Positions 12,306-45,858 are shown, counted from the stretch's first letter. The stretch is DNA of 64,000 bases from a virus (IMGVR_UViG_3300047491_001507), one strand, 5' to 3'. Notes: generated from the sequence alone by a model not told the origin. Program-made: numbers and translations.

Positions 12306-12362
12306 ATTAACTCCTTGACGATACTGTATTATAGTATATTTATGAAAAACACAACAATAATC

Positions 12363-12701
12363 ATGACTCACCTTTGTTCAGGTCATGAGCAATTAATAAA
12401 TGAGTTAATGAAAAACCCTCATTTTGATCACTTTGAAACTAAAGGTCTTCATCATTATGATGACTTCCAGATACTATTTAATAATCCGCATCGCAAAAAT
12501 GATAAAAAAGCGGTTTGGGGAACGACTATTTTTCATAATCAAGACCTAACATGTTTTTCATTAATCAAACATTGTAATTTTATTTATTATAGTAAAAAGT
12601 ATGATCCTAGTATGTCCATCAGTGCTTTATCTTATCGATATAGAATTACGGGTATGAAGATTTGGCATAATAGAACAGGCGGTGAATGGTTAGTCGTTTA
12701 G
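12363..12701 (+). CDS. hypothetical protein filling the gap between portal and the upstream gene
   Basis: This is the only ORF that covers the 12306-12689 gap. The start at MTHLCSG has no clear Shine-Dalgarno site. Confidence 0.2.
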   Translation: MTHLCSGHEQLINELMKNPHFDHFETKGLHHYDDFQILFNNPHRKNDKKAVWGTTIFHNQDLTCFSLIKHCNFIYYSKKYDPSMSISALSYRYRITGMKIWHNRTGGEWLVV

Positions 12702-25608: not shown

Positions 25609-27906
25609 TTACCAAGGACTTCCTGTATCTTCCTCTTCTTCATCGTTATCATCATCATTTGATGGTTCTACGTTCTTTGGAGGTGTTGCCTTAGGTTTGC
25701 CTTCTGATTTTGTATCTTTTGGCGGATTTACCTTAGGCTTCTCTTCTGATTTTGTATCTTTTGGCGGATTTACCTTAGGCTTCTCTTCGCTTTTTGGTGT
25801 TATGCTAGTTTTAGCCTTAGCTGGTGGCTCTGCCTTTGGTGGCTCTTCTGCCTTTGGTGGCTCTTCTGCCTTTGGCGGCTCTGCCTTAGCTGGTGGCTCT
25901 TCTGCCTTTGGCTCTGCTTTGGCCGGTGGTTCTTCTACCTTTGGCTCTGCTGCTTTGGCCGGTGGTTCTTCTACCTTTGGCTCTGCTGCTTTGGCCGGTG
26001 GTTCTTCTACCTTTGGCTCTGCTGCTTTGGCCGGTGGTTCTTCTGCCTTTGGCGGTTCTGCCTTAGCTTCTGGCGTTTCTAATTTCTTAGCTAATTGTTT
26101 AATGAATTTATTGGTTATCTTTTCAACGTCTTTTTCTTCGTAATGCTTCTTTAAAACTTCTCTCATTTCAGATTCAGTTGAGAATTGAGCAAATGTATTT
26201 AAGAGTTTTTCAAAATACATTTGGTTTATTTTAAAGCTATCAACTAATAAATCTAAACTGTTAGCACTTGAACCTTTTGAAAGTTCTTTGAATTTTTTAA
26301 GCACCTCTTTCTCATATTCTTCAATAGACATGCCTTCTGAAGAATTTTTGGTCTTAATGTCTTTGACTCTGGCTTTCATATCTTTAGGCTTAGTTTCTTT
26401 TTTGGCATCTTTTGATAAAGCATTATTGATTTCGGCATCTGATTCTGCCGATTCTGCCGATTCTGGTGTTTCTGGCACAAAATCTAAATCGGGAATTTCA
26501 ATATTTCCGAATCGTTTACCAATAGCCTCTAATAAATGATAAAGGTACTTTTTATTGATTGCCTCTGCATATTGCATGTCTAACTCAACATTAATAGCAT
26601 GAATAATTTCTAATACATATTCTGCTTTAGAAATGGCAGGAGACAAAAATCTTATGACCTTATTTTTCAATTTGCCCTTATAAAACAAAATTTGAAAATG
26701 TTCTTTAATTTTGCCGTTTTCGTCATGCAATATATTTAACTTCAAAAACAACTTGAGTATTCTCTTGCAAATAGCATTGATCTGTCTGAAAGAAAAGTTT
26801 TTGCTATTTGGAACAATATCTTCTGGCTTAATCACTGGATATCGACTTACCTTGGCATCATATTCAGGAACCTTAAATCCAAGAACCTTGATTCCTTTTA
26901 ATATGTCTTCGGCTCTATTTTGGAAAGTCCTGTTGTCTGGCAAAGTCGATACCTTTCGGCCTTGAGTGTTACTCATGGCATTGTCGTCGCTTACCTCTTG
27001 TTCGTCTCCAACTATTTTCATATTCTGAGCCAAAGGTGCTGAATCAGATTTAGGACCAACTTCTGTTTGTGCAATTTTAGATTTAATCAAATCAATTAAT
27101 TGCTTCTTAAAGACAGCAAAAATATCACTGATATTAGAAGTGTTCTCTGAAAATACATTTTCAAGAATTTCAGCTTGTTCTCTAGTCGGATCGCCATGCC
27201 ATATACGACGAATGGGTCTGGTGGCTCTACGAAACATGCGACTCAAACCGCCTCTGATGCCGTCAGAAGGTAATTTATCTCCATATTTTGCTGGCTGGAA
27301 ATCTCCTGCTTTTGGTCTAGATTGACCTTTAAAATCTGACCATCTAGGATATCGTTTTGAAGGCCCTTCAGTTGGCTTGACTGCTGGTTTTGCTGTTGGT
27401 GCAACTGTTGGCTCTGCTGCCGGTTCTGTTGCAGGTTCTGAGGAAACATCTGCGGCTCCCTGGCTTGTGCTGCCAGATGGCAATTTGCTTCCACGGATAG
27501 GTTGAGGCCCTGGAACACTTGCGGACTTATCGCTACTTATGTCACTGCTTACAGGCGTATCACTTCTAGATAAACTGATGATTTGTTTGACATCTGATTC
27601 TAATTTATCAATTAGATCTGAGATATCTTTTAAATCCACGCCTGCCGTAGCTTCTTTAATTAGCTCATCTTTGTATTCCTGAATAAAATTGTTTATCCAA
27701 TATTTGTTAAATTCATAATCTTGTTTTCGAAAATTTAAGTAATGTGCTTCAGAAACAATACCATCAAACATTGATTCTGGTAATTTAACAACTTCTAAAA
27801 CAGTTAATCTTAATACTTCACAATACTGTTCTATGCTTTCTTTTAGCGAAAGTTTTGGAATGGAATCGACAATTTGATTTCTTCTGTATTCTGAAAAACT
27901 ATACAT
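25609..27906 (-). CDS. large hypothetical protein with C-terminal PAKAAEPKVEEP-type tandem repeats
   Basis: 765 aa. The C-terminus has about nine proline/alanine/lysine/glutamate repeats and then KSEEKPKVNPPKDT repeats. The nucleotide tandem repeats are at 25697-26090. Confidence 0.5.
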   Translation of the reverse strand: MYSFSEYRRNQIVDSIPKLSLKESIEQYCEVLRLTVLEVVKLPESMFDGIVSEAHYLNFRKQDYEFNKYWINNFIQEYKDELIKEATAGVDLKDISDLIDKLESDVKQIISLSRSDTPVSSDISSDKSASVPGPQPIRGSKLPSGSTSQGAADVSSEPATEPAAEPTVAPTAKPAVKPTEGPSKRYPRWSDFKGQSRPKAGDFQPAKYGDKLPSDGIRGGLSRMFRRATRPIRRIWHGDPTREQAEILENVFSENTSNISDIFAVFKKQLIDLIKSKIAQTEVGPKSDSAPLAQNMKIVGDEQEVSDDNAMSNTQGRKVSTLPDNRTFQNRAEDILKGIKVLGFKVPEYDAKVSRYPVIKPEDIVPNSKNFSFRQINAICKRILKLFLKLNILHDENGKIKEHFQILFYKGKLKNKVIRFLSPAISKAEYVLEIIHAINVELDMQYAEAINKKYLYHLLEAIGKRFGNIEIPDLDFVPETPESAESAESDAEINNALSKDAKKETKPKDMKARVKDIKTKNSSEGMSIEEYEKEVLKKFKELSKGSSANSLDLLVDSFKINQMYFEKLLNTFAQFSTESEMREVLKKHYEEKDVEKITNKFIKQLAKKLETPEAKAEPPKAEEPPAKAAEPKVEEPPAKAAEPKVEEPPAKAAEPKVEEPPAKAEPKAEEPPAKAEPPKAEEPPKAEEPPKAEPPAKAKTSITPKSEEKPKVNPPKDTKSEEKPKVNPPKDTKSEGKPKATPPKNVEPSNDDDNDEEEEDTGSPW
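25697..26090. repeat. in-frame tandem nucleotide repeats of about 36 and 42 nt inside the 765-aa gene
   Basis: tgctgctttggccggtggttcttctacctttggctc occurs three times. ccttctgattttgtatcttttggcggatttaccttaggctt occurs twice. ggtggctcttctgcctttgg units recur. Confidence 0.7.
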
Positions 27907-27953: not shown

Positions 27954-28481
27954 CTAAGGCATATATTCACCAATTTTCTTTAATGCCATTAAATTAGAAT
28001 CGTAGGTTTGAAAAGGGCTTGGTAAATATTGGTAGCAAATACGGTCAAACTCTGCTCCTTTGCCTTCTGGATATTCAAAATGAACATATTTTCCTTTTTT
28101 ACCAATAACTTTTACTCCAAGAGCTTTATCTGAATATTCTTTCATTAAAAGATAGGCGGCAACACCTAAGTCGGCAACAGTTTTGCAACGCCTCTCATCA
28201 GTAATTCCTGGATCAAATTCGTTGATTTTTTTCAAAAACATCAAACAAGAATCGAAGGTGTAAAACTCGTTTGGTGGTTGGTATTCCAGCACCAAACGAT
28301 CAAATTCTTTAGCTTCTTGCTCGTCTGAACATTCAAAATAAATCGATCTGCCTCTTTTGCCAATTACAATATAACCATGCATTAGAACATAGGCAGCTAC
28401 CCCTAAATCATTTACGAACTTATGAATACATTCTGTCATTTCTTCCCCTTTCTTGTTACTTAGTTGCATTCTCTGCGGCAA
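27954..28481 (-). CDS. protein with two tandem ~80-aa repeats of an uncharacterised domain
   Basis: NDLGVAAYVLMHGY...FECSDEQEAKEFDRLVLEYQPPNEFYTFDSCLMFLKKINEF matches ADLGVAAYLLMKEY...FEYPEGKGAEFDRICYQYLPSPFQTYDSNLMALKKIGEY. Confidence 0.45.
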   Translation of the reverse strand: MPQRMQLSNKKGEEMTECIHKFVNDLGVAAYVLMHGYIVIGKRGRSIYFECSDEQEAKEFDRLVLEYQPPNEFYTFDSCLMFLKKINEFDPGITDERRCKTVADLGVAAYLLMKEYSDKALGVKVIGKKGKYVHFEYPEGKGAEFDRICYQYLPSPFQTYDSNLMALKKIGEYMP

Positions 28482-29496
28482 TTAAACATCCACGGCTTAC
28501 ACAATACAAAGGATCATCTGGCCTGATAATTTCTCCGAAATTAACTGGAATTTGTGCATTAAGTAACAGATTCTTAAATAATGCATCAAAACCAGGAGGA
28601 CTTGCACTTCCACCGGCCACAATAACATCAATTGGATTGTCTAATCTTCTTATCTTTTCCTCATTTTCCATCAAACCTTTTTTAATTCCAGCTACTGTTC
28701 TCTCAATCATCAATTCATATTGAGTACGAATTGCTCTTTCTACTAATGTTGTTGGTGGTTTGGTCAAATTAATTTTGTGTTTTTCTTTGTTAATAAAGGC
28801 AATACTTTCTCCAGTAGCCTTGGCAGCTTGTTTATCAATCCAATCTCCTGAGTTTACAAGAGAAAAACTGAATACTTCTACGCCATACAAAGCAAATGCT
28901 ACATTGACCATGCCACTACCGCAACTTACGCCAAGACCTGTCCAATATTTGTTGGCGAGTTCAGAATACACAACTGCCATTCCTTCATTAATTGGACGAG
29001 CATCGACTGTGTAGCCTTGTTCGGACTTATAAGCTTTAAAAATAGCATCGAGTATTTTACGGTGATAATCTGCATCCGTTTCTTGATTAACTGCATTAGC
29101 AGGCACACTGTAATACATAATTTCCTTATCATGATCAATATTGTCCAATAAGCTGTGCATCATAATGTTCATGATCTGAAATGCGTCTTTTTCCTTGGGA
29201 TTGACACAGCCATCTTGCATAGGTCTACGAAGCGAAATCTGACTCATGGTGTAAGCAATGTTTACAGCAGCTTCGCCTAATGCATAAGCGATTTTGGCAT
29301 CTTCTCGTAAAATAAGAGGAACGCCAGATTTTTTCATCATATTGAAAACAAATTCGTTCTCCAGAGGCATTTCTAAGAATGCATTGACTTCTCTTTTATA
29401 AACTAAATCGCCTTTTTCGTTTCGTTTGCAAGTAACGATATTATAAGTACCTGCGTCAAATCCACAACTCATAAAATCCTCCAAATTATTTGCCAA
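28456..29496 (-). CDS. actin-like ATPase (ParM/MreB/Alp-like)
   Basis: Phosphate-1 is GFDAGTYNIV. Phosphate-2 is LGVSCGSGMVNVAF. The adenosine motif is VIVAGGSASPPGFD. The 346-aa size is typical of bacterial actins. Confidence 0.55.
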   Translation of the reverse strand: MANNLEDFMSCGFDAGTYNIVTCKRNEKGDLVYKREVNAFLEMPLENEFVFNMMKKSGVPLILREDAKIAYALGEAAVNIAYTMSQISLRRPMQDGCVNPKEKDAFQIMNIMMHSLLDNIDHDKEIMYYSVPANAVNQETDADYHRKILDAIFKAYKSEQGYTVDARPINEGMAVVYSELANKYWTGLGVSCGSGMVNVAFALYGVEVFSFSLVNSGDWIDKQAAKATGESIAFINKEKHKINLTKPPTTLVERAIRTQYELMIERTVAGIKKGLMENEEKIRRLDNPIDVIVAGGSASPPGFDALFKNLLLNAQIPVNFGEIIRPDDPLYCVSRGCLIAAENATK

Positions 29497-29707
29497 AATT
29501 CAACTTCATACCTGATGTAAAATCAGGTATGACATGATCTGTTCTTTCTATATGTTTTTCTTCTTTTAATGTAGTAACATCTGCTTCATTTGAAGATGCA
29601 TTTATCTGTCCGTCAACGGTTATATTAATGTTTAAAGTTATTTCTAATTCCCCATCTCTAGGTACAATTTTGATTTTTGTTGGACCTTTTTGAATAAGTT
29701 GCGGCAT
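29486..29707 (-). CDS. small hypothetical protein
   Basis: 73 aa. It overlaps the start of the actin-like gene by 11 nt. Confidence 0.3.
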   Translation of the reverse strand: MPQLIQKGPTKIKIVPRDGELEITLNINITVDGQINASSNEADVTTLKEEKHIERTDHVIPDFTSGMKLNFGK

Positions 29708-29708
29708 A

Positions 29709-30668
29709 TCACCACCTTTTAAACATCTCTTCTGTTTTTTCTAATATCATCTCCACTGTAATATTTGTTACACAAGGCTTAGGAGTATTTAGCGTCTTGA
29801 CGCATTTTCCCCATTCATAACATGGGCCACATTCCCAGTTTGTGTCAAGATTTCTGTGTTTTTGTACTAAAAAGAAATCAAAATATTTTCCATAAGTAAT
29901 TCCGTCTACAAAAGTAAATATGCCCACCAATGGTTTTTTCATGCCTCCAGCAGCATGAAATGTAGCAGTGTCTACACTAATCACATAATCGCTTTCATGA
30001 ATTACTGCTAACCACTGTCGCAAATTAATGTCGAAAATTGTTGGTATGTCATTTGCCAACATACATGGAATTACAGTATTATGTAGTCCGATTACACAAT
30101 ATCCCTTTTGACGCAAATTATAAACTAACCCCATGATCTGCTCTTCAGTCAAATTTTTATTTAACATTGCGGATATGGGCGACAAAATAACAATTTTTCC
30201 TGGACGATCTCTTTTTTTTTCTAATATGTACTTCCCTTCTATTTTCTCAACTTCTGAAAGATGAATGTGCATATTGTGTTCAGTTAATGTCAACCCGCAA
30301 TGTTCTGCCCAAATATCACTGCGATGCTTGTCGCAAAATGGAGCATATTTCATTTCATAACGACCGCAAATGGTAGAAGTGTTGTATGACATTAAATACT
30401 TTCTGCGATCAATCTCTTCTATGGTTAAAATCTTATCGACAAAAGGATGATCTTCAACAGCCGAATGGTAATATTTGGGACATGCAAAATGAATTTCAAT
30501 TTCAGGACATAATTTCTTAAAATCCTCAAATAACATCCTGTGCATTAAAATATCCCCCAAACCCCCCACATTACGTATAATTAAAAGTTTATTCTTAATC
30601 TCTTGGAATTCTTTGATATTTAATTGTTTTTTCTTAGGATGGCGATTTGGTTGAGTGATTATGGGCAT
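29709..30668 (-). CDS. GT9-like (heptosyltransferase-family) glycosyltransferase
   Basis: LLIIRNVGGLGDILMHRMLFEDFKKLCPEIEIHFACPKYY matches the GT9 N-terminal signature (iliIRlsalGDvl...p.a.idwlv). Confidence 0.5.
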   Translation of the reverse strand: MPIITQPNRHPKKKQLNIKEFQEIKNKLLIIRNVGGLGDILMHRMLFEDFKKLCPEIEIHFACPKYYHSAVEDHPFVDKILTIEEIDRRKYLMSYNTSTICGRYEMKYAPFCDKHRSDIWAEHCGLTLTEHNMHIHLSEVEKIEGKYILEKKRDRPGKIVILSPISAMLNKNLTEEQIMGLVYNLRQKGYCVIGLHNTVIPCMLANDIPTIFDINLRQWLAVIHESDYVISVDTATFHAAGGMKKPLVGIFTFVDGITYGKYFDFFLVQKHRNLDTNWECGPCYEWGKCVKTLNTPKPCVTNITVEMILEKTEEMFKRW

Positions 30669-30689
30669 TCAATAATAAAGTAATTAAAT

Positions 30690-30720
30690 AAAAAAAGGGC
30701 CACCGAAGTGACCCTTTTTT
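30690..30720 (-). terminator. strong rho-independent terminator with a UUCG tetraloop, probably bidirectional
   Basis: The minus-strand RNA folds as GGGUCAC-UUCG-GUGGCCC followed by UUUUUUU. A-tracts and T-tracts sit on both flanks. Confidence 0.65.
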
Positions 30721-30753
30721 CCAGACTAATCTGGTATCGATCTAACCATGTTA

Positions 30754-31344
30754 TCAGCTAGTTGGGACTGAGCGAATGGCTGCAATCCAACTTGCGTCTG
30801 AAGCTGCGGTTGACTTTAGTCGCAAATAAGTAATTGCTAAGTCGCCCTGATTGAAAATCTGAGTCTCGCCAGCTTTCAATGTAAATGTAACATCCGTATC
30901 TGCATTCAATTCACCCGAAACCGTTTGAGTAGCATCCAAGTTCTGGACCTGTAAGAATCGAGCGGGACCACCGTAGGTCGTTACGAAATCAACTACTGTG
31001 TCAGCGTAATCTGTCGTCAATGTCTCAGTTGCACCAGCAGCGAAAGTATTCTCTTCTGGAATATCACTGTATACACTGCCATCATCCGTAACTACTTCGA
31101 TGAAAGCTGCTTCTTGTGCTACCTGTGGATATGCAAATCGTTTCCAATAGTTGCAGTCCGTAAATGTAGCACCATCAACCAAAAGACGATAACTGCGATT
31201 CGGGCCAGCTACGAAAATCTGACGCTGCTTTGATGCAGTGAAAGGCGTGCCCAATGCACCATACGTGGTTGATGTGTCTGTGGTCGGATCAAGATCCAAT
31301 AGACCCTGCTTTACATTCTGTAATTTTACTCTAAATACTGACAT
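30754..31344 (-). CDS. Ser/Thr-rich structural-like protein that is probably highly expressed
   Basis: 196 aa. Its GC content is distinctly higher than the flanking DNA. It has a strong Shine-Dalgarno site (AGGAG) and a strong terminator immediately downstream. The sequence is T/S-rich (DPTTDTSTTYGALGTPFTASK, ATETLTTDYADTVVDFVTTYGG). Confidence 0.4.
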   Translation of the reverse strand: MSVFRVKLQNVKQGLLDLDPTTDTSTTYGALGTPFTASKQRQIFVAGPNRSYRLLVDGATFTDCNYWKRFAYPQVAQEAAFIEVVTDDGSVYSDIPEENTFAAGATETLTTDYADTVVDFVTTYGGPARFLQVQNLDATQTVSGELNADTDVTFTLKAGETQIFNQGDLAITYLRLKSTAASDASWIAAIRSVPTS

Positions 31345-31385
31345 GGAATTCTCCTGTTTTCTCTAATTTTTTCGTCCGTCAAAAT

Positions 31386-31982
31386 TTATATATCCCATAC
31401 CTCTCCTTTTAAAAATAATTTTTTATACAATCGTGTACCAATTCCTGTAGGCACTAAAAATGTCATTGTTTCATTAATAGCAGCATTAAATAAATCAGGA
31501 CTTTCTACTCCAGCTACACATCCTGCGAATTCCACGTTTCCATTAATTTCTACAGAGAATCCTTTGTCTAATAATTTCTGCCGTAATTTTTCAATTTGTA
31601 AAGAAGTCAAGCTTTTAGTTGGATGGTTGCCTTGAGTAATAATAACAGCCCTATTGGTCAATAAAGATTTTGTTGAATCGATAAAATTAAACCTGATTTT
31701 AGAATCTTCAATTAAATGCTCAATAGGATGGCGAATTCCGTCATAAGATAAAGTGTAAACGTAAGAATAAAGGCGTTTGTTAAGTTGAGACAGTCCAACA
31801 GCATTCTTGCCCGCTAAATGAACTTTATCGTCCTTACAAGCAATAGTTAATTTAATTGGAAAGTATTGTTTTTCAATTGCTGATGTTAAAAACTTAAGCA
31901 AAACAAGATATTCATCAGAATATCCTGAGTAAAGAATGCAATAATTATTGATAATTTTTGAATATTGTTCGAATGGTAGCAT
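31386..31982 (-). CDS. GT9-like protein, short form
   Basis: AVIITQGNHPTKSLTSLQIEKLRQKLLDKGFSV resembles the GT9 central region (ihpgas...KrWp.e.f.eLa..L...g..vvl). No clear Shine-Dalgarno site precedes the start. Confidence 0.3.
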   Translation of the reverse strand: MLPFEQYSKIINNYCILYSGYSDEYLVLLKFLTSAIEKQYFPIKLTIACKDDKVHLAGKNAVGLSQLNKRLYSYVYTLSYDGIRHPIEHLIEDSKIRFNFIDSTKSLLTNRAVIITQGNHPTKSLTSLQIEKLRQKLLDKGFSVEINGNVEFAGCVAGVESPDLFNAAINETMTFLVPTGIGTRLYKKLFLKGEVWDI

Positions 31983-32111
31983 ATATTATAATAATGGACG
32001 ATACAGAAAAAATCCAATCTGGTTTACATGCATTTCACGATTTTTTTCAACAATTTGGGGATGATGTCTATGCCAGAATACTTATTGAAGTAATTATGGA
32101 AGGAATAATCA

Positions 32112-32474
32112 ATGCTGAGACTCTATTTATATTTGGCGAGCAGGAAGAAGAAGGGAATCAAATTGATCACAGTGCTACAGGGAACCCAATCTGTTAATAG
32201 CGAATTGACAGATTTGGAAAGTCTAAATCTTAACGCTACATGGTCAAACAAAATTGCTAAAATCATTAACGAACATAAACTGCTCTATTTCCCTATGATT
32301 GAATCGGCAAAAGACTATCAAGAGTTAAAATCTAGATTAGAAAGTCGTGGTTATGATAATATCCCTTCCGGCGTTGTGCCTTTGTTGCATATGCAAGCAT
32401 ATGCAAAAGCTCCTATAGCTGATGTAAGTTCATGTAAAGTTGTGAAAACTATGATTAGAAGAGGAAAACAATGA
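32112..32474 (+). CDS. hypothetical protein
   Basis: An AAGGAA Shine-Dalgarno site precedes the ATG at 32112. Its stop overlaps the start of the next gene (ATGA). Confidence 0.4.
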   Translation: MLRLYLYLASRKKKGIKLITVLQGTQSVNSELTDLESLNLNATWSNKIAKIINEHKLLYFPMIESAKDYQELKSRLESRGYDNIPSGVVPLLHMQAYAKAPIADVSSCKVVKTMIRRGKQ

Positions 32475-33340
32475 ATGAATGCTTAGATCGTTTAAACAAC
32501 GAAAAAATGGAATTTTATAAGTTTGCATACCGAAATAGCAAACGATGGACTCCAGATCAAGGATCTTTAAATGGGAAAACAGTAATTGTCTATGGAGAGC
32601 AAGGATTTGGAGATATCATACAATTTTCTCGATATATTCCAATTCTTCAGTCTAAAGGCTGTAAAATATTGTTTGCCTGTCCCAAAGAATTGCATAGATT
32701 GTTTGCTTGTTTGAACGTGGAGCTTATTGATAAGGAAACTTTAGAATTACCACCCCATGACTTCCATATTTTATCCTTCAGTTTGCCTTTTGCCCTTCAA
32801 CAACTTCATGATGGAATAAAATTTCCGTATCTTGTTGTGCCAGAAAAACATGAAATTGATAAGATTGACAATGTTAAAAATATAGGAATTTGTTGGGAAA
32901 GCGGAGCAGACAATCAAAAAAATTGTCCTTTAAATTATTTTAGAATGCTAGCATGTCCTTATATTCGTTTTTATTCTCTTCAAAAACAAATTCTAATCCC
33001 TCAATTATTAAACGACTGTGATGATTTTGAATTGTTCGGGACTGAACTAGAAGATTTCTACGATACTGCCAAGTTAATTAATGCTATGGACATGGTTATT
33101 AGTGTAGATACGGCAGTATTGCATCTTGCAGGAGCTTTAAATAAGCTTACTTATGGAATTTTGAACTTTGAGCATGATCCTCGCTGGGATGTTGGAAATT
33201 GGTATCATAGTGCCGTTATAATAAGACTAAAACAAAGAGATAATTGGTATGCAGCATTTAAGACAATTATCGATATGTGCATCGGAATTAGATCTGCTAT
33301 CAATCCTGATGATGACTTAATGAACTTAATGTCTTCCTAG
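32471..33340 (+). CDS. GT9-like glycosyltransferase
   Basis: KTVIVYGEQGFGDIIQFSRYIPILQSKGCKILFACPKE matches the GT9 N-terminal signature. An AGAGGAAAA Shine-Dalgarno site precedes the start. Confidence 0.45.
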   Translation: MNECLDRLNNEKMEFYKFAYRNSKRWTPDQGSLNGKTVIVYGEQGFGDIIQFSRYIPILQSKGCKILFACPKELHRLFACLNVELIDKETLELPPHDFHILSFSLPFALQQLHDGIKFPYLVVPEKHEIDKIDNVKNIGICWESGADNQKNCPLNYFRMLACPYIRFYSLQKQILIPQLLNDCDDFELFGTELEDFYDTAKLINAMDMVISVDTAVLHLAGALNKLTYGILNFEHDPRWDVGNWYHSAVIIRLKQRDNWYAAFKTIIDMCIGIRSAINPDDDLMNLMSS

Positions 33341-33541
33341 CTCAATAAAAGCCATTGATTTAACCATTGCTGCAAAACGAGGCAGAGACCATGCTTTGGT
33401 AGGCAACAAATTCAAAGACTCAATGGCTGTAATTAAATTCTCTATTGGCATTTCTATGATGTTTTCTAGCTTTAGATTGTTTTTGTCACATAATGCATCT
33501 AATGCTTTGATAGCTTCGTATTGTTGCAATTTGTACATCAT
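33326..33541 (-). CDS. small hypothetical protein
   Basis: 71-aa ORF. Confidence 0.3.
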   Translation of the reverse strand: MMYKLQQYEAIKALDALCDKNNLKLENIIEMPIENLITAIESLNLLPTKAWSLPRFAAMVKSMAFIELGRH

Positions 33542-33783
33542 TATGCCACATCATCATATTGTGAATGTGCATCTTGCACGCAAGTTCTGAATTTTTCTAT
33601 TAAAAATTTAAGCTGAATAAGCAATTCGTAAAATTCCCCTCTATTGGAGGGTAAATCACGAAGTCTTATTTTCAATGCATTGATTTCTCTTCTTAATTTG
33701 TTCAATTCTGAAAGATTTTTGTCAGGAATGTAACTGAATGTTTTTGTTTCTTTGAACTCAAGCCATTTTTGAAAAATACCCAT
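33541..33783 (-). CDS. small coiled-coil protein
   Basis: 80-aa ORF (LNKLRREINALKIRLRDL). Confidence 0.3.
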   Translation of the reverse strand: MGIFQKWLEFKETKTFSYIPDKNLSELNKLRREINALKIRLRDLPSNRGEFYELLIQLKFLIEKFRTCVQDAHSQYDDVA

Positions 33784-33824
33784 ATTTTTTACCTATTCAG
33801 TTAGTGAGTATGGATAACATCAAA

Positions 33825-34127
33825 TTATGACTTGATTTTAACACAAAAACGAGGCAAGGAGAACTCCCCTGATTCTACTTCGATGTTAACCATTTTTCCT
33901 TCAATTGAAAGTACAGTTCCACCATTTTTGATGAACTCCTCAATTAAAGCTTCTGCATCATCAGTTGTTTCTATTTTTTCTAGCATCTTTTTTTGACTAA
34001 CTTTAGACTTAACTGGTTTTCCAATTACTTCGTCTAAAGCGTCTTTTTCAATATTGAAGAAGTTGGACATGCCTTGTTGGCCAGCCAACCAATTTTTAAA
34101 ATCTTTTAGTGATAATGGTCTGTTCAT
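33825..34127 (-). CDS. hypothetical protein
   Basis: 100-aa ORF. Confidence 0.35.
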   Translation of the reverse strand: MNRPLSLKDFKNWLAGQQGMSNFFNIEKDALDEVIGKPVKSKVSQKKMLEKIETTDDAEALIEEFIKNGGTVLSIEGKMVNIEVESGEFSLPRFCVKIKS

Positions 34128-34132
34128 AATTA

Positions 34133-35014
34133 TTATTTAAAAAATTCTATTGCCTCTTCATTATTATGTATACACAAAGCGTTATTATATTTTGCTCCTT
34201 CAGAAAAATCACAAATTTTTATGCTTTTATTTTCTTGTTGTGTTAGCCAATACAACTTTGCATCCACAATTTCTTGGGCTCTTAAATGCTGCGGATATGT
34301 GTATAACCCATTCTCTAAAAGAACCGATGCATCCTTTTTGATTTTAAACGAATCATCGCAACAAAGCAACATTAATTTTTCAACGCCAAAACGATAGCTC
34401 AAATCAATTGCGGCACAAATTGGATTGCGATAATCGTCAACGTGTCCCTCATCAGTATTGTTTCCAAATTCATAGTCACAAGTTGGGTTGTAAGTGTAAA
34501 TAGTGCCTTGATATTTTTGTAAGAAATTATAGTTCGTCCTTCTAGATGCTACACAAGCTGGATAATATTTTGTTTCTATTGGCAAATAAGAAGCACATTC
34601 AGGATATGGATTGTTCACAATATAAGCATTAATAGATCTTGGATTAGTAGGATCTGTATGTAATTTCCACTCCTTAAGCACCTTGTTAACTGCAAAAACT
34701 GCCACATCTTTAGGAAATTGAGCAATCAATTTGTGTCTAGAGGCAAAAGCAAAACCATCAGAGACGATTACGATTTTACTGAAATTGATTTTTTCTTTTA
34801 AGATGTCTGAAAAATTAGCGTTTTTAATTTCATTCAACATCACAATATGATAATCATCTTGACGATACAAATTATTTAAAATTACTGAAGTTGTACTGGG
34901 CTTTAAGAAATTGCGGACCCAAATATCTCCAGCAAAAATATATTCATTTTTGGTAAAACGGTCTTTTTTTATGTACATATTTAACCTGTAGGACACGGAG
35001 AAATTACCACGCAT
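34133..35014 (-). CDS. putative nucleotide-sugar glycosyltransferase (sialyltransferase/Maf/DUF115-like)
   Basis: IVIVSDGFAFASRHKLIAQFPKDVAVFAVNKV follows the hhhhGNGPSl...VfRCN pattern of GT42/Maf-type transferases. The resemblance is weak. Confidence 0.3.
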   Translation of the reverse strand: MRGNFSVSYRLNMYIKKDRFTKNEYIFAGDIWVRNFLKPSTTSVILNNLYRQDDYHIVMLNEIKNANFSDILKEKINFSKIVIVSDGFAFASRHKLIAQFPKDVAVFAVNKVLKEWKLHTDPTNPRSINAYIVNNPYPECASYLPIETKYYPACVASRRTNYNFLQKYQGTIYTYNPTCDYEFGNNTDEGHVDDYRNPICAAIDLSYRFGVEKLMLLCCDDSFKIKKDASVLLENGLYTYPQHLRAQEIVDAKLYWLTQQENKSIKICDFSEGAKYNNALCIHNNEEAIEFFK

Positions 35015-36846
35015 TTTTGTCCTGCTGCGTCTTTGCTTAGTATTTCATCCATGGTAATTTTGACTTCTATAGGACTGCCTCGCCATACCAATTCAACTTC
35101 TGGCATCTTGTCAGGAAAAACAACAGGTAAAGCGAAGTTATCTGGCAATGATAAAGGAATCGATTGTGGTCCTTCTAATATAATTTTCTCTGGAATTGTG
35201 TGCTCAATGCTAATGGTACTTGGAATAGGAACAGGCATCTCTACCACAATGTGATTAGGAATGTCCTTTTCCATAACAAGTTTAATTTCTTTAGGAACTT
35301 GAGAAGTATCAATAGGTATAGCACTCCCACTATAAACCAAATCAATTGTATCTGGTATTTCATATCCTTCTAAGCGAATTGAATTGGGAATAGGGCTATC
35401 TGGACCATAAATCTTAATTTTGTCAGGCATTTGAACATCTGAAGAATCAATTTTAATCTTCTGAGGCAGATTGCTTTCTATTTTAATAGAAGGAAATTCA
35501 GGAGGAATAATTCTGATCTCTTCAGGAATTCCTACACTCTCATATTCTACTTTTAATGAATCTGATGCCTCAAACAAATCTGCAAATTCTGTCCCAAATT
35601 CTTTAACAATTTCTGGATCTGCTACAAGACGTTGAGGATTGCTTACATTTTTAGCTAATGTAAGAGCAACTTCCATTGGCGGAGGGGCTCCCCAATCTAC
35701 TTCTAGTCGAGGTAAATTTGAGGCATCAAGCTCTAAAGAAAGTACAGATGCAGGAGGAACAAGAACAATTGTCGGAGGAATTGGTGGATCTATGACAATT
35801 GTATTCGGCATATCTACGAAAATTATTGATGGAATGTTAATGCCATCTCCAGTAATAGTCACCTGACTGTGCAGTATTTGTACAGGCTCATTTGGTCCTT
35901 CAATCACCACATGACTAACCATATTGATATATGGGCCTGAAATAATAGAAGGAATGTTTACTAATTGTCCTGCAAGGGAAATACAGGGAAAAACCAAAGG
36001 AGGCAAGCTAATATCTGCTTCTGGAACACTACATGGAACAAATGTAAAATCTGGAATATCAGGAATTTCTGGAACCGGAACGTCAAAAATAGGTCGGGTT
36101 TCTGTTTCGGGCTGATTTGGATCTGTTCTTTCAATGGCTGTTTGTACAGTTTCACACAATCCATTTGAAATTGTGATTACAGGGTCAATTTTAGTATTGA
36201 CGGCATATCTGTGAAAACCCTCTAATTCTGTCGTAGTATATTGTCCATCTCCAAAATCCAATCTGAATGACTCAACATTACCTGGATCAGTAATTTTTAC
36301 CGAATAACTATAAAGGATGCCTGTTTCAGGGTCGTTTTCTACTAAATTAAAATCAAAAATTACATCAGGACAGTTATAATCATCATAAATTGATTGTAGT
36401 GAGGCTAAATTACGAATTCTCCAATCTAAAGTTTCTTGTCTTGTGTCGTAATTATAGCCAATAAAATTCTCTGTTTTGATAATGGCATTTACTAATTGAT
36501 TGTGATGTTCTGCTACCACAAAACCTCTGATCCATGTACCTTTGTTGTTGAATTTTGTGGTTCCGCTTAACTGTCTAGAACATCTTCTTAGTTTGTAGAC
36601 TTTTCCGTTAACATCTTTGCCAACTGCATCATAATACAACAATTCGCCATCAATATTGGCAAAACCGTTGTCGGGCCATATTTCGTTTTCATCAGCAGCC
36701 ACAGGAACTATTTCGATTTCTTGTGACCAAGCAGAATTATCTACAGCAATTTGTGCTTCGGTTGTGTTATGAACCAAATACAAAGTGTAATCTGAATCAA
36801 TTGCTTGAGGATATCTTGGTACTGGAATAAATGCCATTTTTTTCAC
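34981..36846 (-). CDS. tail fibre or receptor-binding protein, paralog 1 (AEHHN module plus PKD-like domain)
   Basis: VVAEHHNQLVNAIIKTENFIGY is shared with the two upstream paralogs. RLDFGDGQYTTTELEGFHRY is PKD-like. The C-terminal half is Pro-rich (IPD/VPxP repeats). Confidence 0.5.
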   Translation of the reverse strand: MKKMAFIPVPRYPQAIDSDYTLYLVHNTTEAQIAVDNSAWSQEIEIVPVAADENEIWPDNGFANIDGELLYYDAVGKDVNGKVYKLRRCSRQLSGTTKFNNKGTWIRGFVVAEHHNQLVNAIIKTENFIGYNYDTRQETLDWRIRNLASLQSIYDDYNCPDVIFDFNLVENDPETGILYSYSVKITDPGNVESFRLDFGDGQYTTTELEGFHRYAVNTKIDPVITISNGLCETVQTAIERTDPNQPETETRPIFDVPVPEIPDIPDFTFVPCSVPEADISLPPLVFPCISLAGQLVNIPSIISGPYINMVSHVVIEGPNEPVQILHSQVTITGDGINIPSIIFVDMPNTIVIDPPIPPTIVLVPPASVLSLELDASNLPRLEVDWGAPPPMEVALTLAKNVSNPQRLVADPEIVKEFGTEFADLFEASDSLKVEYESVGIPEEIRIIPPEFPSIKIESNLPQKIKIDSSDVQMPDKIKIYGPDSPIPNSIRLEGYEIPDTIDLVYSGSAIPIDTSQVPKEIKLVMEKDIPNHIVVEMPVPIPSTISIEHTIPEKIILEGPQSIPLSLPDNFALPVVFPDKMPEVELVWRGSPIEVKITMDEILSKDAAGQKCVVISPCPTG

Positions 36847-36849
36847 CTA

Positions 36850-39120
36850 CTAATATATAGTCATCAACCACTGTTCACCAGTAGGTCTGCTGCCAATTGA
36901 AGAAAAAGTTAAATCAATTTCATTAAACTTGATAAAGACATTTGAGCTATAGTCGAAACTTAAATAAGCTCGTCTATCACCATCTGATGATGCTAACAAC
37001 GGATTGCTTTCTTCGTCAAATCCTGCAACAGTTGAATCTTGCAAACTACGATATGCCAATGAATTGACGCCAGGACCTCCTGCTGCCCATACCATTGTTA
37101 TAGGTTCGTATCTAGCAACCGATCCTGTGTTGTTTAGGAAGAAAACACCTGTGCTTAAACTAACTAACTGACCTTCTGTTCTGACAATCCCTTGCATATC
37201 TTGCAATTTTCTGATGTTTAAAAATGGATCACTTAAAGTACCCTCTGTACGATAAAAGCTTCTTAATCTAAAGAATGATCCTACACTATCATTACGCAGT
37301 AAATATCCCACATTGTTTTTCCAAGTACTACGATATACGCTAAAATGCCCATAAGATGAGTTTCCTTCGCTGTCATAAACAGCAACATTACTGTTTAACT
37401 CATCTGCTCCATTTAAGTAATTTTCCGCAGTTAAATCTACTTCATCGCATGTGTAACTGCCAATATCATATTTCTGTTTCTTGACATTTGTTAAAGATTG
37501 GTCAGGTTCTCTTTCGCCATTAATTGCTCCAAATACAAAATAAGAATAATTGGAGGAGTTAAAATTAACCCAGTTCCATGGTCTAGTGATAGAATTACGA
37601 GCGATGTAAATATCAGTAAAAGCATTGTACTCTGTTACATAAATTTTTTCTGCACTTGGAGGCTCGACTGCTGTCCTGCCGCTTGCATAATATATGAGAC
37701 TACTACCTCCCTTGCCTGATGAAACAGTACTTCTGGGAGCAAATCCTGTATTTCTTTCAAATTCGTGTTTTTGCTTTAAATATTCTGGCTCACCTTGTAA
37801 AAACGAACTGTTCCGCTGCACGACAAGTGTGTTGCTAGATGCCAATTTAAATGTTTCGCTCAACAAGCCATACTCATAAGATCTAGCTTGATTATTAGTA
37901 ATGGTCCAAAACCAAAGATTTTGATTTTCTATGATGTCTATTGCATTTTCGTAGGTAGTGATTCTATATGCCCCGCTATCAGTATCCACTCTTAATTTTA
38001 AGTCGTAAATCCCTCCAACACTATATGCTGCTTTTGCTGTCGAATCGCTAACATGAGTAAGATCATCTCCTAATGACCAAGTATAAGTTACAATTGGATC
38101 AATTGGAGAACCTAAATCATTCAATAATTCACCTGATTTAGAGTAAGTGGAGCCATCATAAATAAAAGTTCCATCTGGGATTTCAATGTTAATAATCGTA
38201 TTTATTGGAGATTTAATTCTTGGAACGATTTGATACGGCCCATTGGGAGGGGCTCCAGGGGTTACACTTTGGTATGTGTATTGAATAAAGTTTATTACTG
38301 CCTCTTGAGGAGCTTTTTGTCTTGCGTTGATATATGCTGGAAATTCACATATATCTGATCCAAAATTGTTACTGACGGTTAGTTTTACGTCATAAATTCC
38401 TGGTTGATAATAGGTCTTTTTGATTTTTCCGCCATCAGTATCTCTAATAACAACATCTATAGCCCCACCAGGAACCTCATCTGTAGCACTGATTTCACTG
38501 TAGGAGATGCTGGAATAGGTATGATCTCCAAAATCCCAGACCAAGCTAATTACGCCAGAATTTCCATCAGTACCTAAACGAAAGCTTAAATCCTCAAATT
38601 CTACTTCAAGCGGTATGTTTCCGAAGCGTTTGTCAGATGTAAACCAAGCTTTTGGTTGTAAAACTAAATTTCTGAGAAAATTAACTCTACCTTCTAACGT
38701 ATCTCCAAAAGGCATAGTGTCAGTAACACCTTCTACTCCGCAAAATTCCTGTATGTTGATGAGAGCATCTTTGATACAATTATGATGTTCTGCCATAACA
38801 CTTATCGTAACATCAGTAATTCTTTTGTATTTTATATTATCTTCAAATCCTGAGAGGATTTCCAGGCCAGAAAAGATATTAGATGTTGAATCAAAGCCGC
38901 TATAATAAAAAGAAATTGCTCTTAATTTTTTATCGCTACATTGATCTGTCAATGTAATAATGCCGGTTGGCGGTACAGAAGCAATTGTGAAAACATCCCC
39001 TTCTACCAAAATGGATGTGTCTCCAGGGTTGTAATCTTCAGACAGAGTCAATCTTAATCCATTCTGGACCAAGAAAAGATTTGTGTCTGTATCAAATGAT
39101 ATCGGATAATTTGAAGTCAT
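36850..39120 (-). CDS. tail fibre or receptor-binding protein, paralog 2
   Basis: VMAEHHNCIKDALINIQEFCGV. PKD-like segments are LVWDFGDHTYSS and YTWSLGDDLTHV...YDLKLRVDTDSG. Confidence 0.5.
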   Translation of the reverse strand: MTSNYPISFDTDTNLFLVQNGLRLTLSEDYNPGDTSILVEGDVFTIASVPPTGIITLTDQCSDKKLRAISFYYSGFDSTSNIFSGLEILSGFEDNIKYKRITDVTISVMAEHHNCIKDALINIQEFCGVEGVTDTMPFGDTLEGRVNFLRNLVLQPKAWFTSDKRFGNIPLEVEFEDLSFRLGTDGNSGVISLVWDFGDHTYSSISYSEISATDEVPGGAIDVVIRDTDGGKIKKTYYQPGIYDVKLTVSNNFGSDICEFPAYINARQKAPQEAVINFIQYTYQSVTPGAPPNGPYQIVPRIKSPINTIINIEIPDGTFIYDGSTYSKSGELLNDLGSPIDPIVTYTWSLGDDLTHVSDSTAKAAYSVGGIYDLKLRVDTDSGAYRITTYENAIDIIENQNLWFWTITNNQARSYEYGLLSETFKLASSNTLVVQRNSSFLQGEPEYLKQKHEFERNTGFAPRSTVSSGKGGSSLIYYASGRTAVEPPSAEKIYVTEYNAFTDIYIARNSITRPWNWVNFNSSNYSYFVFGAINGEREPDQSLTNVKKQKYDIGSYTCDEVDLTAENYLNGADELNSNVAVYDSEGNSSYGHFSVYRSTWKNNVGYLLRNDSVGSFFRLRSFYRTEGTLSDPFLNIRKLQDMQGIVRTEGQLVSLSTGVFFLNNTGSVARYEPITMVWAAGGPGVNSLAYRSLQDSTVAGFDEESNPLLASSDGDRRAYLSFDYSSNVFIKFNEIDLTFSSIGSRPTGEQWLMTIY

Positions 39121-39129
39121 ATTTTCTCC

Positions 39130-40155
39130 TTAGAGTACCACCAATGTTTCTGAAAGTTCAAATTTCTTAATTCTATTATTGCTGAACTGTATAAGTTCCG
39201 TTACTGTATATTCTCCTGGCGATTGATAAATATGACTTACTGTGTGAATATCTGGATCTTCTTGTGTATAAGTCTCTCCATCACCAAAAACCCAATGTCT
39301 TTGAACAATATCGCCATCGGTTTGATCAACAAATATAAATTCCTTTGGCGTTAAATTTTCAGAAGTCGCAGTCTCCTCTGAATAGGCATTGTCAATAGAT
39401 TCTACATAGAAAAAAGGAAGGATCTCATCTGCACTTACTTTAATATAATCGCTTTTAGTTACTACTCCTTGTGCTCCAGCAGAAGTTATGACGTTTAATC
39501 TTACGGTATAATAACCTTCTGTAACATAGGTGTGTATTGGATTTTTTTCTACAGATGTTCCTCCATCTCCAAAATCCCATAAATAACGAATCACATGTCC
39601 GCTGCTAAGATTCTGAAAACGTACTTTTAAAGCAGGAGGACCATTCAGAGGAAATGCACGAAATAATGGTTTAGGTGCTAAGAATCTTACCTCCTGAGCC
39701 GTTAAAATGCCATTTAAGGAAGCATCAGCAGCATTCTCTTTGATCCCTAAATCAGTCTGAATATTTATGATGGCATCTTTGATGGCATTGTGATGTTCCG
39801 CATCAACAGAATTACTGACATATGAATTACTGGCTGTCCAAAAGCCATGTTTAGATCCTGCAAAACCTCTAATTAAATCTCGAAAGGTATTGCCGGTTTT
39901 GTAGCTATAATATATCATCTCATATGGCCCAGGTTCTCCAGGAGCAGATCCAATCCTTACGATGCCATTATCTGGAAATAACGATGTGTCTTCTACGATT
40001 ATAACCTTGCCAGAATGTGTTAAGGTTTGTTTTAAAGGAACAACAGCATTATTGGAAACTTCGTATAAAGTTTCTTTAGTATCTAATTCTGTTGGGAAAA
40101 CAGATAGATTTCCTGCCACATAATTTGCATCTGATGTTGATGTTCGACTTGCCAT
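39130..40155 (-). CDS. tail fibre or receptor-binding protein, paralog 3, with two PKD domains
   Basis: VDAEHHNAIKDAIINIQTDLGI. The PKD consensus appears in RYLWDFGDGGTSVEKNPIHTYVTEGYYTVRLNV and in HWVFGDGETYTQEDPDIHTVSHIYQSPGEYTV. Confidence 0.5.
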   Translation of the reverse strand: MASRTSTSDANYVAGNLSVFPTELDTKETLYEVSNNAVVPLKQTLTHSGKVIIVEDTSLFPDNGIVRIGSAPGEPGPYEMIYYSYKTGNTFRDLIRGFAGSKHGFWTASNSYVSNSVDAEHHNAIKDAIINIQTDLGIKENAADASLNGILTAQEVRFLAPKPLFRAFPLNGPPALKVRFQNLSSGHVIRYLWDFGDGGTSVEKNPIHTYVTEGYYTVRLNVITSAGAQGVVTKSDYIKVSADEILPFFYVESIDNAYSEETATSENLTPKEFIFVDQTDGDIVQRHWVFGDGETYTQEDPDIHTVSHIYQSPGEYTVTELIQFSNNRIKKFELSETLVVL

Positions 40156-40893: not shown

Positions 40894-41427
40894 TTAGACG
40901 ATTTTCATTCCTACAATGCCTTTAAAAACAACCCCCTGCTCTATTGCAGATAATGACCACATAAATTTAGCAAATTCAAAATCGTTAAATTGTTGTTTTT
41001 GTGCAGTAATTGTTGGAAAATCCCCAGCTTGAACAAAAAAAGATTTGTGAATCAATACCCCATTAAACGAACCTTCAATAAATCCTAAGTAATGGTTTAA
41101 AATTGGATACAATACGTCCTTTTCAGATTTGGCAAATAGCTCTAGTTTTCTTTCTAGGTATTTGGTTACTCGACTTCCTGCAAAAATTAGAAATACCCAA
41201 TCTTGTTTGACCTTTTTAAACCCAGCATTAATCAAGCTGGTAATTGTATTTCCTGCCTTGACACAATCACAAATCTCTTTAAATTCTTTTAACTCCTTGG
41301 TGGTAACACTTTCGGCAGCAACCGCAACAATGTTGTTGTTGCAGCAATTGTTGCGAATTGAATTTACGGTGATTTTTAATGATTGTATATTCCGATCAGG
41401 ACATAAAATAACATAAGTAATATTCAT
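40894..41427 (-). CDS. hypothetical protein, possibly GT2-like
   Basis: MNITYVILCPDRNIQSLKITVNSI...WVFLIFAGSRV weakly resembles a GT-A/GT2 N-terminus. Confidence 0.25.
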   Translation of the reverse strand: MNITYVILCPDRNIQSLKITVNSIRNNCCNNNIVAVAAESVTTKELKEFKEICDCVKAGNTITSLINAGFKKVKQDWVFLIFAGSRVTKYLERKLELFAKSEKDVLYPILNHYLGFIEGSFNGVLIHKSFFVQAGDFPTITAQKQQFNDFEFAKFMWSLSAIEQGVVFKGIVGMKIV

Positions 41428-45700: not shown

Positions 45701-45858
45701 AAATTAGGCGAAGAAAAATCTCTCTCGACATAATAAATGATAATTTTGTCAATCTTGTAAGGATCGCTTAAGAAACAACCATCAACATCAGGCGTTTCTA
45801 TGTTTATTATGATTGTGTCCGTTGATCTTGGACTTTGATTAAAATATTTTATTGCCAT
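42724..45858 (-). CDS. large baseplate protein (gpI/gp6-7-like by position)
   Basis: 1044 aa, immediately downstream of baseplate J. Its start overlaps the baseplate J stop (TAATG). Confidence 0.4.
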   Translation of the reverse strand: MAIKYFNQSPRSTDTIIINIETPDVDGCFLSDPYKIDKIIIYYVERDFSSPNFGEYSKVVDDEQLATAVSLLKTQACNNPTNEQYALLLQEAESALVSKRVSTTYYFKDRKPVKVIGSEGEPAWLSTDESNSSLVHVTEDDNGETQYGHFTYEWRPEGSVRGGDYFVCWSWMPNQYGSKLSANLVFTLEDDPRITTAIPTHITPEEKYEVLLERYLPEMYKSTVSDVDLTPDVTFKLNKAVASGFTFLEDFANQIIDLFDANALHESLLVYLSNLFNLKLRSSDPTLWRRQIKEAIPLFKKKGTLDGLRQAFAQSGMILSQYTQYWQVTSSYTWAESFYVDPENPVFELEKDNIVAPIDDDNFGLWIRYSGDSEYTSVDENNVSFEIGNDFKLRMTWTGEQLSSGDIIKVLYQYKAIPNPTEQQIEDYIRSLPIQDNRDEAVQEFPPKNWNVKLIEEGDPLFDIIVPVRHPHHDPVIFGYLRTEFPYGENIYNMDEYNGSLRPSYDACFIDKTFIDPCGYCLSSSYSVDVGIEELSNDRILECYDILEEHMPFHSNLYTVNVYGEFNDFCTSPEEQIDFLVTFSLKQNVISGQNNLLFNRVMESGLQTWAINRDQLAEQTDIVTSETGLAYNNHVMFVVVDDILEYLGVMNGSNILEVLAPSPNAGTYILSDISSNTAKVTTDVNEPVDSNPFTFNLSNIVYSNRFTSITQDDYFEFSDVNVNFTETSIKTQWSVAEEGEGTPWKVLISAYSATPYEIKNIINNCLILEDNGTLPTNSVNSDISYVLISDEDVDILMSSTGLLRCTRRGYVDLNDSELINREQFIHSGDYLQYDDIEYRITDFDDACFWIADWTLGDVVGVAVNTRRRLLEDKMGYFGYYGLNLQTTTDFEDTLDIINGTYPPNSPKDSNNVVYLKGKDNFKESYLFKIDGQYFKILEWTSNTVSLSGLDQQWTTLGFGGTLVNYDLVHFTKNEVNVQFVVFDELDHNSRDIIISEIENTVDGSIAIEALSKSTGTGIQEAVGQDEGIILIIETLDGKTLKGAL

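Follow-up and report, generated by a model that had tools for sequence, protein, structure and literature searches.

To our knowledge, phage-encoded glycosylation of virions has been demonstrated only in mycobacteriophages, where it shields the particles from antibodies. This system was described by Freeman et al. (2023, as cited in PMC12619734, on whose account we rely here). According to two further sources, Maf enzymes are Ser/Thr O-glycosyltransferases of flagellin and also accept the cytidine monophosphate (CMP)-activated sugars CMP-3-deoxy-manno-octulosonate (Kdo) and CMP-N-acetylneuraminate (Neu5Ac) (PMC11339370; bioRxiv 10.1101/2020.06.03.131540). TibC and Aah, the bacterial autotransporter heptosyltransferases (BAHT), are of GT-B fold, act on protein and use a finger of four cysteines (Cys4) for substrate binding (PMC4358343). 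Moraphages, with genomes of 200-307 kb, are jumbo phages whose hosts are predicted to be Bacteroidota, and they are kin to the huge phages of marine sediments (2025, PMC12619734); four orthogroups of their core are putative glycosyltransferases of undecided function (PMC12619734). Here, we analyzed a stretch of 64,000 nt from the virus IMGVR_UViG_3300047491_001507 (in the following “the window”; all positions refer to it), which represents the structural module of a jumbo phage of the T4-like type. The original prediction, made from this DNA alone, saw in it a cluster of glycosyltransferase-like genes around a Ser/Thr-rich gene and proposed glycosylation of virion proteins. The reading at which we arrived, a lineage-wide, phage-encoded O-glycosylation module for virion proteins with an accessory island that diversifies the glycan, stands in our view at about an even chance of being right. 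The lineage probably comprises the moraphages and their huge relatives, with Bacteroidota as predicted hosts.

The center of the locus is formed by a gene for an acidic (isoelectric point 4.4), Ser/Thr-rich jellyroll protein of 196 amino acids (aa) on the minus strand (30754..31344), a candidate abundant virion protein and candidate acceptor. Its Ser plus Thr content of 19.9% was the highest among 61 open reading frames (ORFs) of the window. Only the capsid gene exceeded its GC content (0.456 versus 0.450), at a window mean of 0.356 and a standard deviation of 0.030. The Shine-Dalgarno (SD) site AGGAG was found 7 nt before the ATG, and an intrinsic terminator follows the gene on the same strand (30690..30721; GGGTCAC-TTCG-GTGGCCC, then T7), read from 30721 to 30690 as a 14-pair stem with TTCG (UUCG) loop and T7 tail. 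The original prediction had named the Ser/Thr richness, the elevated GC content, the SD site and the UUCG terminator, and all of them were recovered; likewise, all its ORFs exist where it had placed them. For comparison, 84 loci holding a homolog of the 196-aa gene were collected and the neighboring genes of the window were mapped onto them. Deduplicated counts are based on 70 distinct loci or on the smaller numbers given. In 56 of 66 distinct loci the jellyroll gene is followed by a strong hairpin with T-run. As the stems are unrelated in sequence, it is the function and position of a terminator that are conserved and not its sequence. More than 1000 homologs of the protein, in 177 clusters at 50% identity, were counted. 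Its C-terminal half was modelled as a jellyroll (predicted local distance difference test score, pLDDT, of 65.8), a fold resembling phage cement, turret and spike proteins. Residues 21-38 were disordered in the model and S/T-rich; among 72 homologs they were the least conserved part and the main site of insertions and deletions. The one motif of Bacteroidota-type O-glycosylation, D-(S/T)-(A/I/L/V/M/T), found by eye (DTV 115-117) was not informative.

Several further observations were made on this gene. A tail tube identity was considered and rejected on account of the jellyroll fold and because gp19 and sheath are encoded separately in moraphages. Cys64 was near-invariant among the homologs. 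In 76% of them the protein ends in xCNS, with a second Cys at the third-last residue, but the window copy has PTS there; this could be an inter-subunit disulfide that was lost in the window phage. The gene is tandemly duplicated in loci L012, L014, L015 and L017 (e.g., L012:5160-5804 and 5906-6547), the copies being 56% and 67% identical to that of the window. In L012 two more ORFs were noticed by eye, a LAGLIDADG-like one that separates the jellyroll from the GT9 gene and a GIY-YIG-like one that follows the 73-aa gene. P0461, a protein of 4267 aa in the representative library, gave 19 matches to the jellyroll profile, the best of which covered profile positions 118-158; possibly, part of the jellyroll domain is repeated here to form a giant protein.

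Directly behind the jellyroll terminator, and lacking an SD site, the core GT9-like glycosyltransferase gene was found (29709..30668, minus strand; 319 aa with a C-terminal Cys4 cluster). Two ORFs, this one and 32471..33340, had been predicted as GT9-like, and the Pfam check bore this out with PF01075 scores of 22.8 and 26.6 bits, respectively, at a gathering threshold of 22; in the core enzyme the match covers residues 214-254 only. Most of the approximately 120 homologs listed for the core enzyme carried a precomputed PF01075 match or the Joint Genome Institute (JGI) name “ADP-heptose:LPS heptosyltransferase” (LPS, lipopolysaccharide). A profile of 25 sequences matched the N-lobe of the GT9 structure 3tov in the PDB (E 0.0035) and the C-lobe of WaaC, and these separate matches support a predicted two-lobe GT-B fold. 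In the profile alignment with WaaC (2gt1), G38-D39 of the phage enzyme came to lie on G12-D13 and VSVDTaaFH on VSVDTGLSH; we take Asp13 of WaaC to be the catalytic base of the GT9 family. G38-D39 was invariant in the family, as were C280, C283, C289 and C299. Across the 25 sequences D39, D233 and H238 were invariant and T234 was present in at least 90%.

The second core enzyme is a Maf-like (MptE-like/DUF115 fold) putative protein O-glycosyltransferase of 281 aa, consisting of the catalytic core only (34133..34978, minus strand). A sialyltransferase/Maf-like ORF at 34133..35014 had been proposed. The Maf-like part of this assignment was upheld by the structure model, but the start had to be corrected to Met13, with which the ORF begins at 34978, immediately behind the third fibre gene's stop codon. 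The protein gave a weak but full-length match to PF01973 (17.2 bits, threshold 34.6), while 16 of 30 homologs matched the family at E ≤0.01 (best 6.6e-9). Searching the PDB with the profiles of the Maf-like protein, of a 198-aa protein and of the second GT9 protein gave nothing useful, and only structure prediction resolved the Maf-like ORF. Its AlphaFold model (43 homologs) reached a pLDDT of 95.3; the catalytic core was structurally similar to that of Maf, and the best fold match was a protein glycosyltransferase. The invariant polar residues of the family include S73-D74-G75, N122-N123-P124, D181-D182 and D208. Homologs measured 258-315 aa and did not show the full Maf architecture of approximately 600 aa. 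Neither flagellin nor CMP-nonulosonate biosynthesis genes were found in the window; the neighbors of the Maf-like gene are phage fibre genes. As the stop codon of fibre-like protein C (34981..36846, minus strand, 621 aa) abuts the Maf-like start, this protein is a candidate acceptor of the Maf-like enzyme.

The linkage of these genes was kept throughout the relatives. Down to 45% identity the order fibre A, fibre B, fibre C, Maf-like, 100-aa, 120-aa (on the opposite strand), 198-aa, jellyroll, GT9-like, 73-aa and Volactin-type actin was retained. Of the 70 distinct loci, 67 have a GT9-like gene downstream of the jellyroll gene, and in 58 the distance is at most 300 nt. The Maf-like gene was present in all loci reaching far enough (34/34), and its distance from fibre C was 60 nt or less in 45 of 52 distinct loci; the 198-aa gene was detected in 58 of 68. 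Distant jellyroll homologs (L087, L089/L090, L092/L093) were obtained by an exhaustive profile search. Relative to the Maf-like, fibre and actin genes, L092/L093 show an inverted block that consists of the intact triad of 198-aa-like, jellyroll and GT9 genes, and in the rearranged L092 fibre C and the Maf-like gene are still adjacent. In L089/L090 the gene behind the distant jellyroll homolog encodes a protein of 525 aa that contains a GT9a-like domain. L087 holds a short jellyroll form without the N-terminal extension after a 1782-aa RCC1-repeat protein, with no GT9 gene visible there. On the 527-kb contig of L052 the jellyroll and GT9 genes are separated by three inserted ORFs of approximately 195-216 aa (L052:10707-12522), at least two of them membrane-protein-like by eye.

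Two more GT9-related ORFs are located nearby. The canonical GT9 glycosyltransferase of 289 aa at 32471..33340 (plus strand) carries the motifs G47-D48 and D213-T214...H218 invariant in 9 sequences and was related to the core GT9-like family by hhalign with 97.6% probability; it gave no match in the PDB by profile search. The gene was found in 15 of the 84 loci, on the opposite strand and in a variable island. Thus, only 29709-30668 is the core GT9 partner and 32471-33340 is accessory. A shorter ORF, 31386..31982 (minus strand, 198 aa), had likewise been called GT9-like. It was related to the core GT9-like ORF at the profile level only: hhalign to the core GT9-like profile gave 80% (E 1.4e-5, 167 collinear columns; 52% in an earlier alignment), with eight control profiles all below 1%. 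On the other hand, none of its 25 homologs matched GT9 in Pfam and the PDB profile search gave no match. The GD motif is replaced by xxE and DT by ES, and the homolog in LR756511 (595 kb) is cut down to 102 aa. Judged from these alignments, the 198-aa gene is probably a paralog of the core GT9-like gene that has degenerated. The weaker GT-A candidates of the original prediction were rejected. For 40894-41427, GT2 appeared in 1 of 8 homologs at E 0.14, AGS/SGS was found at the DxD position and no PDB match was obtained; 8941-9693 had no match in Pfam, PHROGs or phage tblastn. The glycosyltransferase assignment hence holds for three ORFs, two GT9-like and one Maf-like, and probably for a fourth, the 198-aa ORF.

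The variable island is situated between the 100-aa and 120-aa genes and holds the second GT9 gene in the window. It was absent from distant relatives (gap from the 100-aa to the jellyroll gene 0.8-1.2 kb) and reached up to 6.4 kb in close ones. Island ORFs of relatives were assigned to aldehyde dehydrogenase (9), UDP-glucose/GDP-mannose dehydrogenase (7), GT2 (4), GT9 (4), a gp23-like paralog (3) and TnpB (1). With Pfam matched to ORFs by size, the gp23-like capsid paralogs of approximately 573 aa correspond to L022:7100-8821, L026:6230-7954 and L025:7085-8827, and the TnpB/Cas12f-like transposon nuclease to L021:7461-8606.

From the folds and motifs of the enzymes, the linkage of their genes and the signals for expression described above we infer acceptors, donors, virion location and the glycan itself as follows. 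The 196-aa jellyroll protein, part of a late-expressed core module, would be made abundantly from its own SD site on a terminator-bounded transcript, while the GT9-like enzyme behind the terminator would be made in small amounts by read-through. The succession of abundant product, terminator and enzyme gene without SD site fits an enzyme needed in catalytic amounts beside its substrate. In the host cytoplasm the GT9-like enzyme would glycosylate the jellyroll protein, most likely in the disordered Ser/Thr-rich loop 21-38, from a nucleotide sugar such as ADP-heptose; the Cys4 knuckle and the degenerate 198-aa paralog may help to bind the protein acceptor. The Maf-like enzyme would add a CMP-activated ulosonic or nonulosonic acid of Kdo, pseudaminic (Pse), legionaminic (Leg) or neuraminic (Neu) acid type to Ser/Thr residues of either the fibre proteins or, again, the jellyroll protein. 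Since Maf enzymes accept CMP-Kdo and CMP-Neu5Ac, any Gram-negative host could presumably supply this donor. Accessory enzymes of the island would diversify the glycan between strains, namely the canonical GT9 here and GT2, UDP-glucose/GDP-mannose dehydrogenase and aldehyde dehydrogenase in relatives. In its most far-reaching form, the proposal says that core genes across a jumbo/huge T4-like lineage encode two dedicated protein O-glycosyltransferases, a minimal Maf for the fibres and a Cys4 GT9 with its degenerate paralog for the jellyroll protein, and that the island diversifies the coat; this full assignment is tentative and more doubtful than probable. Of the virion-protein O-glycosylation predicted originally, the conserved jellyroll-GT9 and fibre-Maf pairs (approximately 70 distinct loci) speak for the idea, but the 196-aa product is a candidate virion protein and there is one core GT9 only.

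A number of points weigh against glycosylation of virion proteins. We are aware of the fact that the Pfam scores of both GT9 ORFs are marginal and cover the C-terminal motif only, and that the Maf-like protein lacks the N- and C-terminal Maf domains (281 versus 632 aa). At least three distinct loci (L030, L035, L042) have a jellyroll gene without a GT9 gene; a non-homologous replacement enzyme was sought in the loci without GT9 gene and nothing was found in its place. No sugar-nucleotide biosynthesis genes were found in the 64-kb window. Genes of a conserved structural block can also be neighbors because they are needed at the same time, without one product being the substrate of the other. 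The presence of the 196-aa protein in virions is an unproven candidacy and the confidence of its structure model is moderate (pLDDT 65.8). The gene had been predicted to be highly expressed; GC content, SD site and terminator are consistent with this, but by an index of the codon adaptation index type, with the capsid gene as reference, it fell outside the 12 top-scoring ORFs. As the codon index does not single out the gene, high expression rests on the other three signals. Finally, no cultured relative was found, and the sole match in the phage database was the unannotated LR756511.

Among the other explanations, modification of host envelope glycans (LPS core, capsule or S-layer glycan) by the glycosyltransferases, for example to block superinfection or adsorption of progeny to debris, with the proximity to structural genes being incidental, survives best, even though we judge it unlikely. 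GT9 is classically the family of LPS-core heptosyltransferases, homologs are named accordingly (“ADP-heptose:LPS heptosyltransferase”), an island with GT2, GT9 and UDP-glucose dehydrogenase resembles a surface-polysaccharide gene set, and a paper on wastewater huge phages treats such a gene as a host-metabolism gene (PMC10747093). Nevertheless, the genes for the core GT9-like and Maf-like enzymes occur throughout the lineage and in the same orientation as late structural genes, Maf-type enzymes are known to act on proteins, and the Cys4 insertion of the core GT9 was not seen in the aligned region of the retrieved LPS heptosyltransferases. Moreover, the linkage to specific partners, jellyroll and fibre C, was kept through rearrangements; the conservation of both pairs and the survival of the triad upon inversion favor protein targets over a function on host LPS.

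Slightly less probable, and improbable by itself, is that the glycosyltransferase-like proteins are catalytically inactive and help to assemble the fibres and the jellyroll protein as chaperones, or accompany them as minor components of the virion. In T4-like phages a dedicated chaperone gene often follows the fibre genes, the 198-aa paralog is without GD motif and only 102 aa long in LR756511, the Maf-like protein is a bare core, and no donor pathway was found in the window. Against this, the catalytic Asp and the DTxxxH donor motif are invariant in the core GT9-like family (25 sequences), and the Maf-like family keeps many invariant polar residues. A third explanation starts from T4, whose beta-glucosyltransferase has a GT-B fold. 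That one or more of the enzymes glycosylate phage DNA (hypermodified bases), like the T4 alpha-/beta-glucosyltransferases and other viral DNA glycosyltransferases, is very improbable: the phage is T4-like, the Cys4 knuckle could bind DNA and DNA glucosylation is among the possible roles listed for the moraphage core glycosyltransferase groups (PMC12619734), but searches of the window gave no base-hydroxymethylase, TET or methyltransferase gene nearby, the genes sit in the fibre/structural block rather than in the replication block, the best fold match of one enzyme is a protein glycosyltransferase and the GT9 motifs are of ADP-heptose type.

The remaining genes of the block comprise fibres and small conserved proteins. 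Fibre-like proteins A (39130..40155, minus strand, 341 aa) and B (36850..39120, minus strand, 756 aa) contain PKD domains by Pfam, seen for A as PKD/PKD_4 on the identical gene in L002. Their Ser plus Thr contents are 16.7% and 18.1%, respectively, and PHROG matches of fibre A were to baseplate wedge and virion structural proteins. Three fibre paralogs had been proposed. A and B indeed have a common N-terminal module of approximately 200 aa (31% identity, E 3e-13), but fibre C was related to A/B through short motifs only (E 0.003), among them AEHHN and N-terminal motifs common with fibre B. The 100-aa protein (33825..34127, minus strand), without family match, follows the Maf-like gene in 63 of the 84 loci. 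The 120-aa gene (32112..32474, plus strand) lies between the 100-aa and 198-aa genes in 72/84, and the 73-aa gene (29486..29707, minus strand) between the GT9-like and actin-like genes in 57/84. The actin-like gene of Volactin type (28456-29496, minus strand; PF25216, E 4e-66) was found in 62 of 62 related loci, always beside the 73-aa and GT9-like genes; the Volactin family is otherwise known from haloarchaeal cell-shape control.

The window further encodes the gp23-type capsid protein (3658-5106), the large terminase (13073-14887), a gp6-like wedge protein (45858-47414), a gp25-like protein and a gp5-like protein with OB-domain. The T4-type gp20 portal gene (9690-12371, minus strand) is split by an intein (PF14890, residues approximately 180-356). 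A 765-aa protein (25609-27906, minus strand), without family match, carries a long C-terminal Pro/Ala/Lys/Glu repeat array (PAKAAEPKVEEP and similar). ORFs outside 27-43 kb gave Pfam matches to M28, M14 and M20 peptidases, poly(A)-polymerase head domain, histidine phosphatase, SEC-C motif and PD-(D/E)XK nuclease. The exact 196-aa protein is recorded on a contig of 306,208 bp. In LR756511 the capsid protein is 77% and the 196-aa homolog 49% identical to those of the window.

If glycosylation of virion proteins is the function of these genes, glycosylated virions would be a core trait of widespread uncultured aquatic and sediment jumbo phages, achieved via different enzyme families, with bearing on receptor recognition, particle stability, environmental stickiness and evasion of host or grazer recognition. 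Maf-type enzymes would be extended beyond flagellin, as the first Maf outside flagella and the first in a virus; our literature search on DUF115 or Maf in phages found no relevant description. The compact 281-aa Ser/Thr glycosyltransferase core would be of possible use in glyco-engineering. Should the window belong to the moraphages, whose description it matches, also in the 306-kb length of the contig, at least two of their four core glycosyltransferase groups (PMC12619734) would receive a testable assignment.

How does the locus compare with described systems? For the 196-aa protein, the nearest known comparison is with the Bacillus Ena endospore-appendage subunits (DUF3992) and with small phage jellyroll decoration, turret and spike proteins. 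No sequence similarity placed it in the DUF3992 (Ena) family; in contrast to Ena, the window copy is without C-terminal Cys, and its model is only moderately confident. With the LPS heptosyltransferases of CAZy GT9 (WaaC/WaaF; PF01075) the phage enzymes have in common the above-threshold Pfam match and the aligned N-lobe G-D and C-lobe (S/V)-D-T-x-x-x-H motifs. They differ by very low identity and marginal scores and, for the core enzyme, by the invariant C-terminal Cys4 and by being tied to a protein-coding partner gene, not to LPS genes. For the Maf-like enzyme, the flagellin nonulosonic-acid O-glycosyltransferases (PF01973 core; 5mu5) are the closest known system, at a sequence identity of approximately 10%. 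Unlike these proteins of approximately 630 aa, it is phage-encoded and 281 aa long, with no flagellin, FliS or Pse/Leg biosynthesis genes nearby.

The original prediction regarded GT9 enzymes as normally LPS-directed, which does not hold in this generality, since the protein-glycosylating heptosyltransferases TibC/Aah were already known (PMC4358343). These hyperglycosylate Ser of an abundant surface protein encoded next door, and both their oligomerisation and their binding of the acceptor require a Cys4 metal finger inserted in the C-lobe (PMC4358343). With the profile of the core GT9-like family, TibC was not recovered at E up to 1. The spacing is CxxC-x5-C-x9-C in the phage enzyme, whose metal binding is putative, versus CxxC-x15-C-x11-C in TibC (Cys339/342/358/370), and the phage ORF begins directly with the glycosyltransferase N-lobe, with no sign of an N-terminal beta-barrel or hairpin thumb. 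The parallel to TibC as a protein-directed GT9-like enzyme with Cys4 is therefore drawn as an analogy. As in mycobacteriophages, phage glycosyltransferases lie beside genes of abundant, here candidate, virion proteins and the enzyme repertoire varies among related phages. Differences are the Maf-like/GT9-like families, the jellyroll and fibre proteins as candidate acceptors in place of capsid and tail-tube C-termini, the other host phylum, and the fact that glycosylation in the window is read from genes alone, unlike in the mycobacteriophage system. Phage-encoded virion glycosylation as a kind of system is thus known; the novelty lies in the set of enzymes, in the candidate acceptors and in the lineage of the phage.

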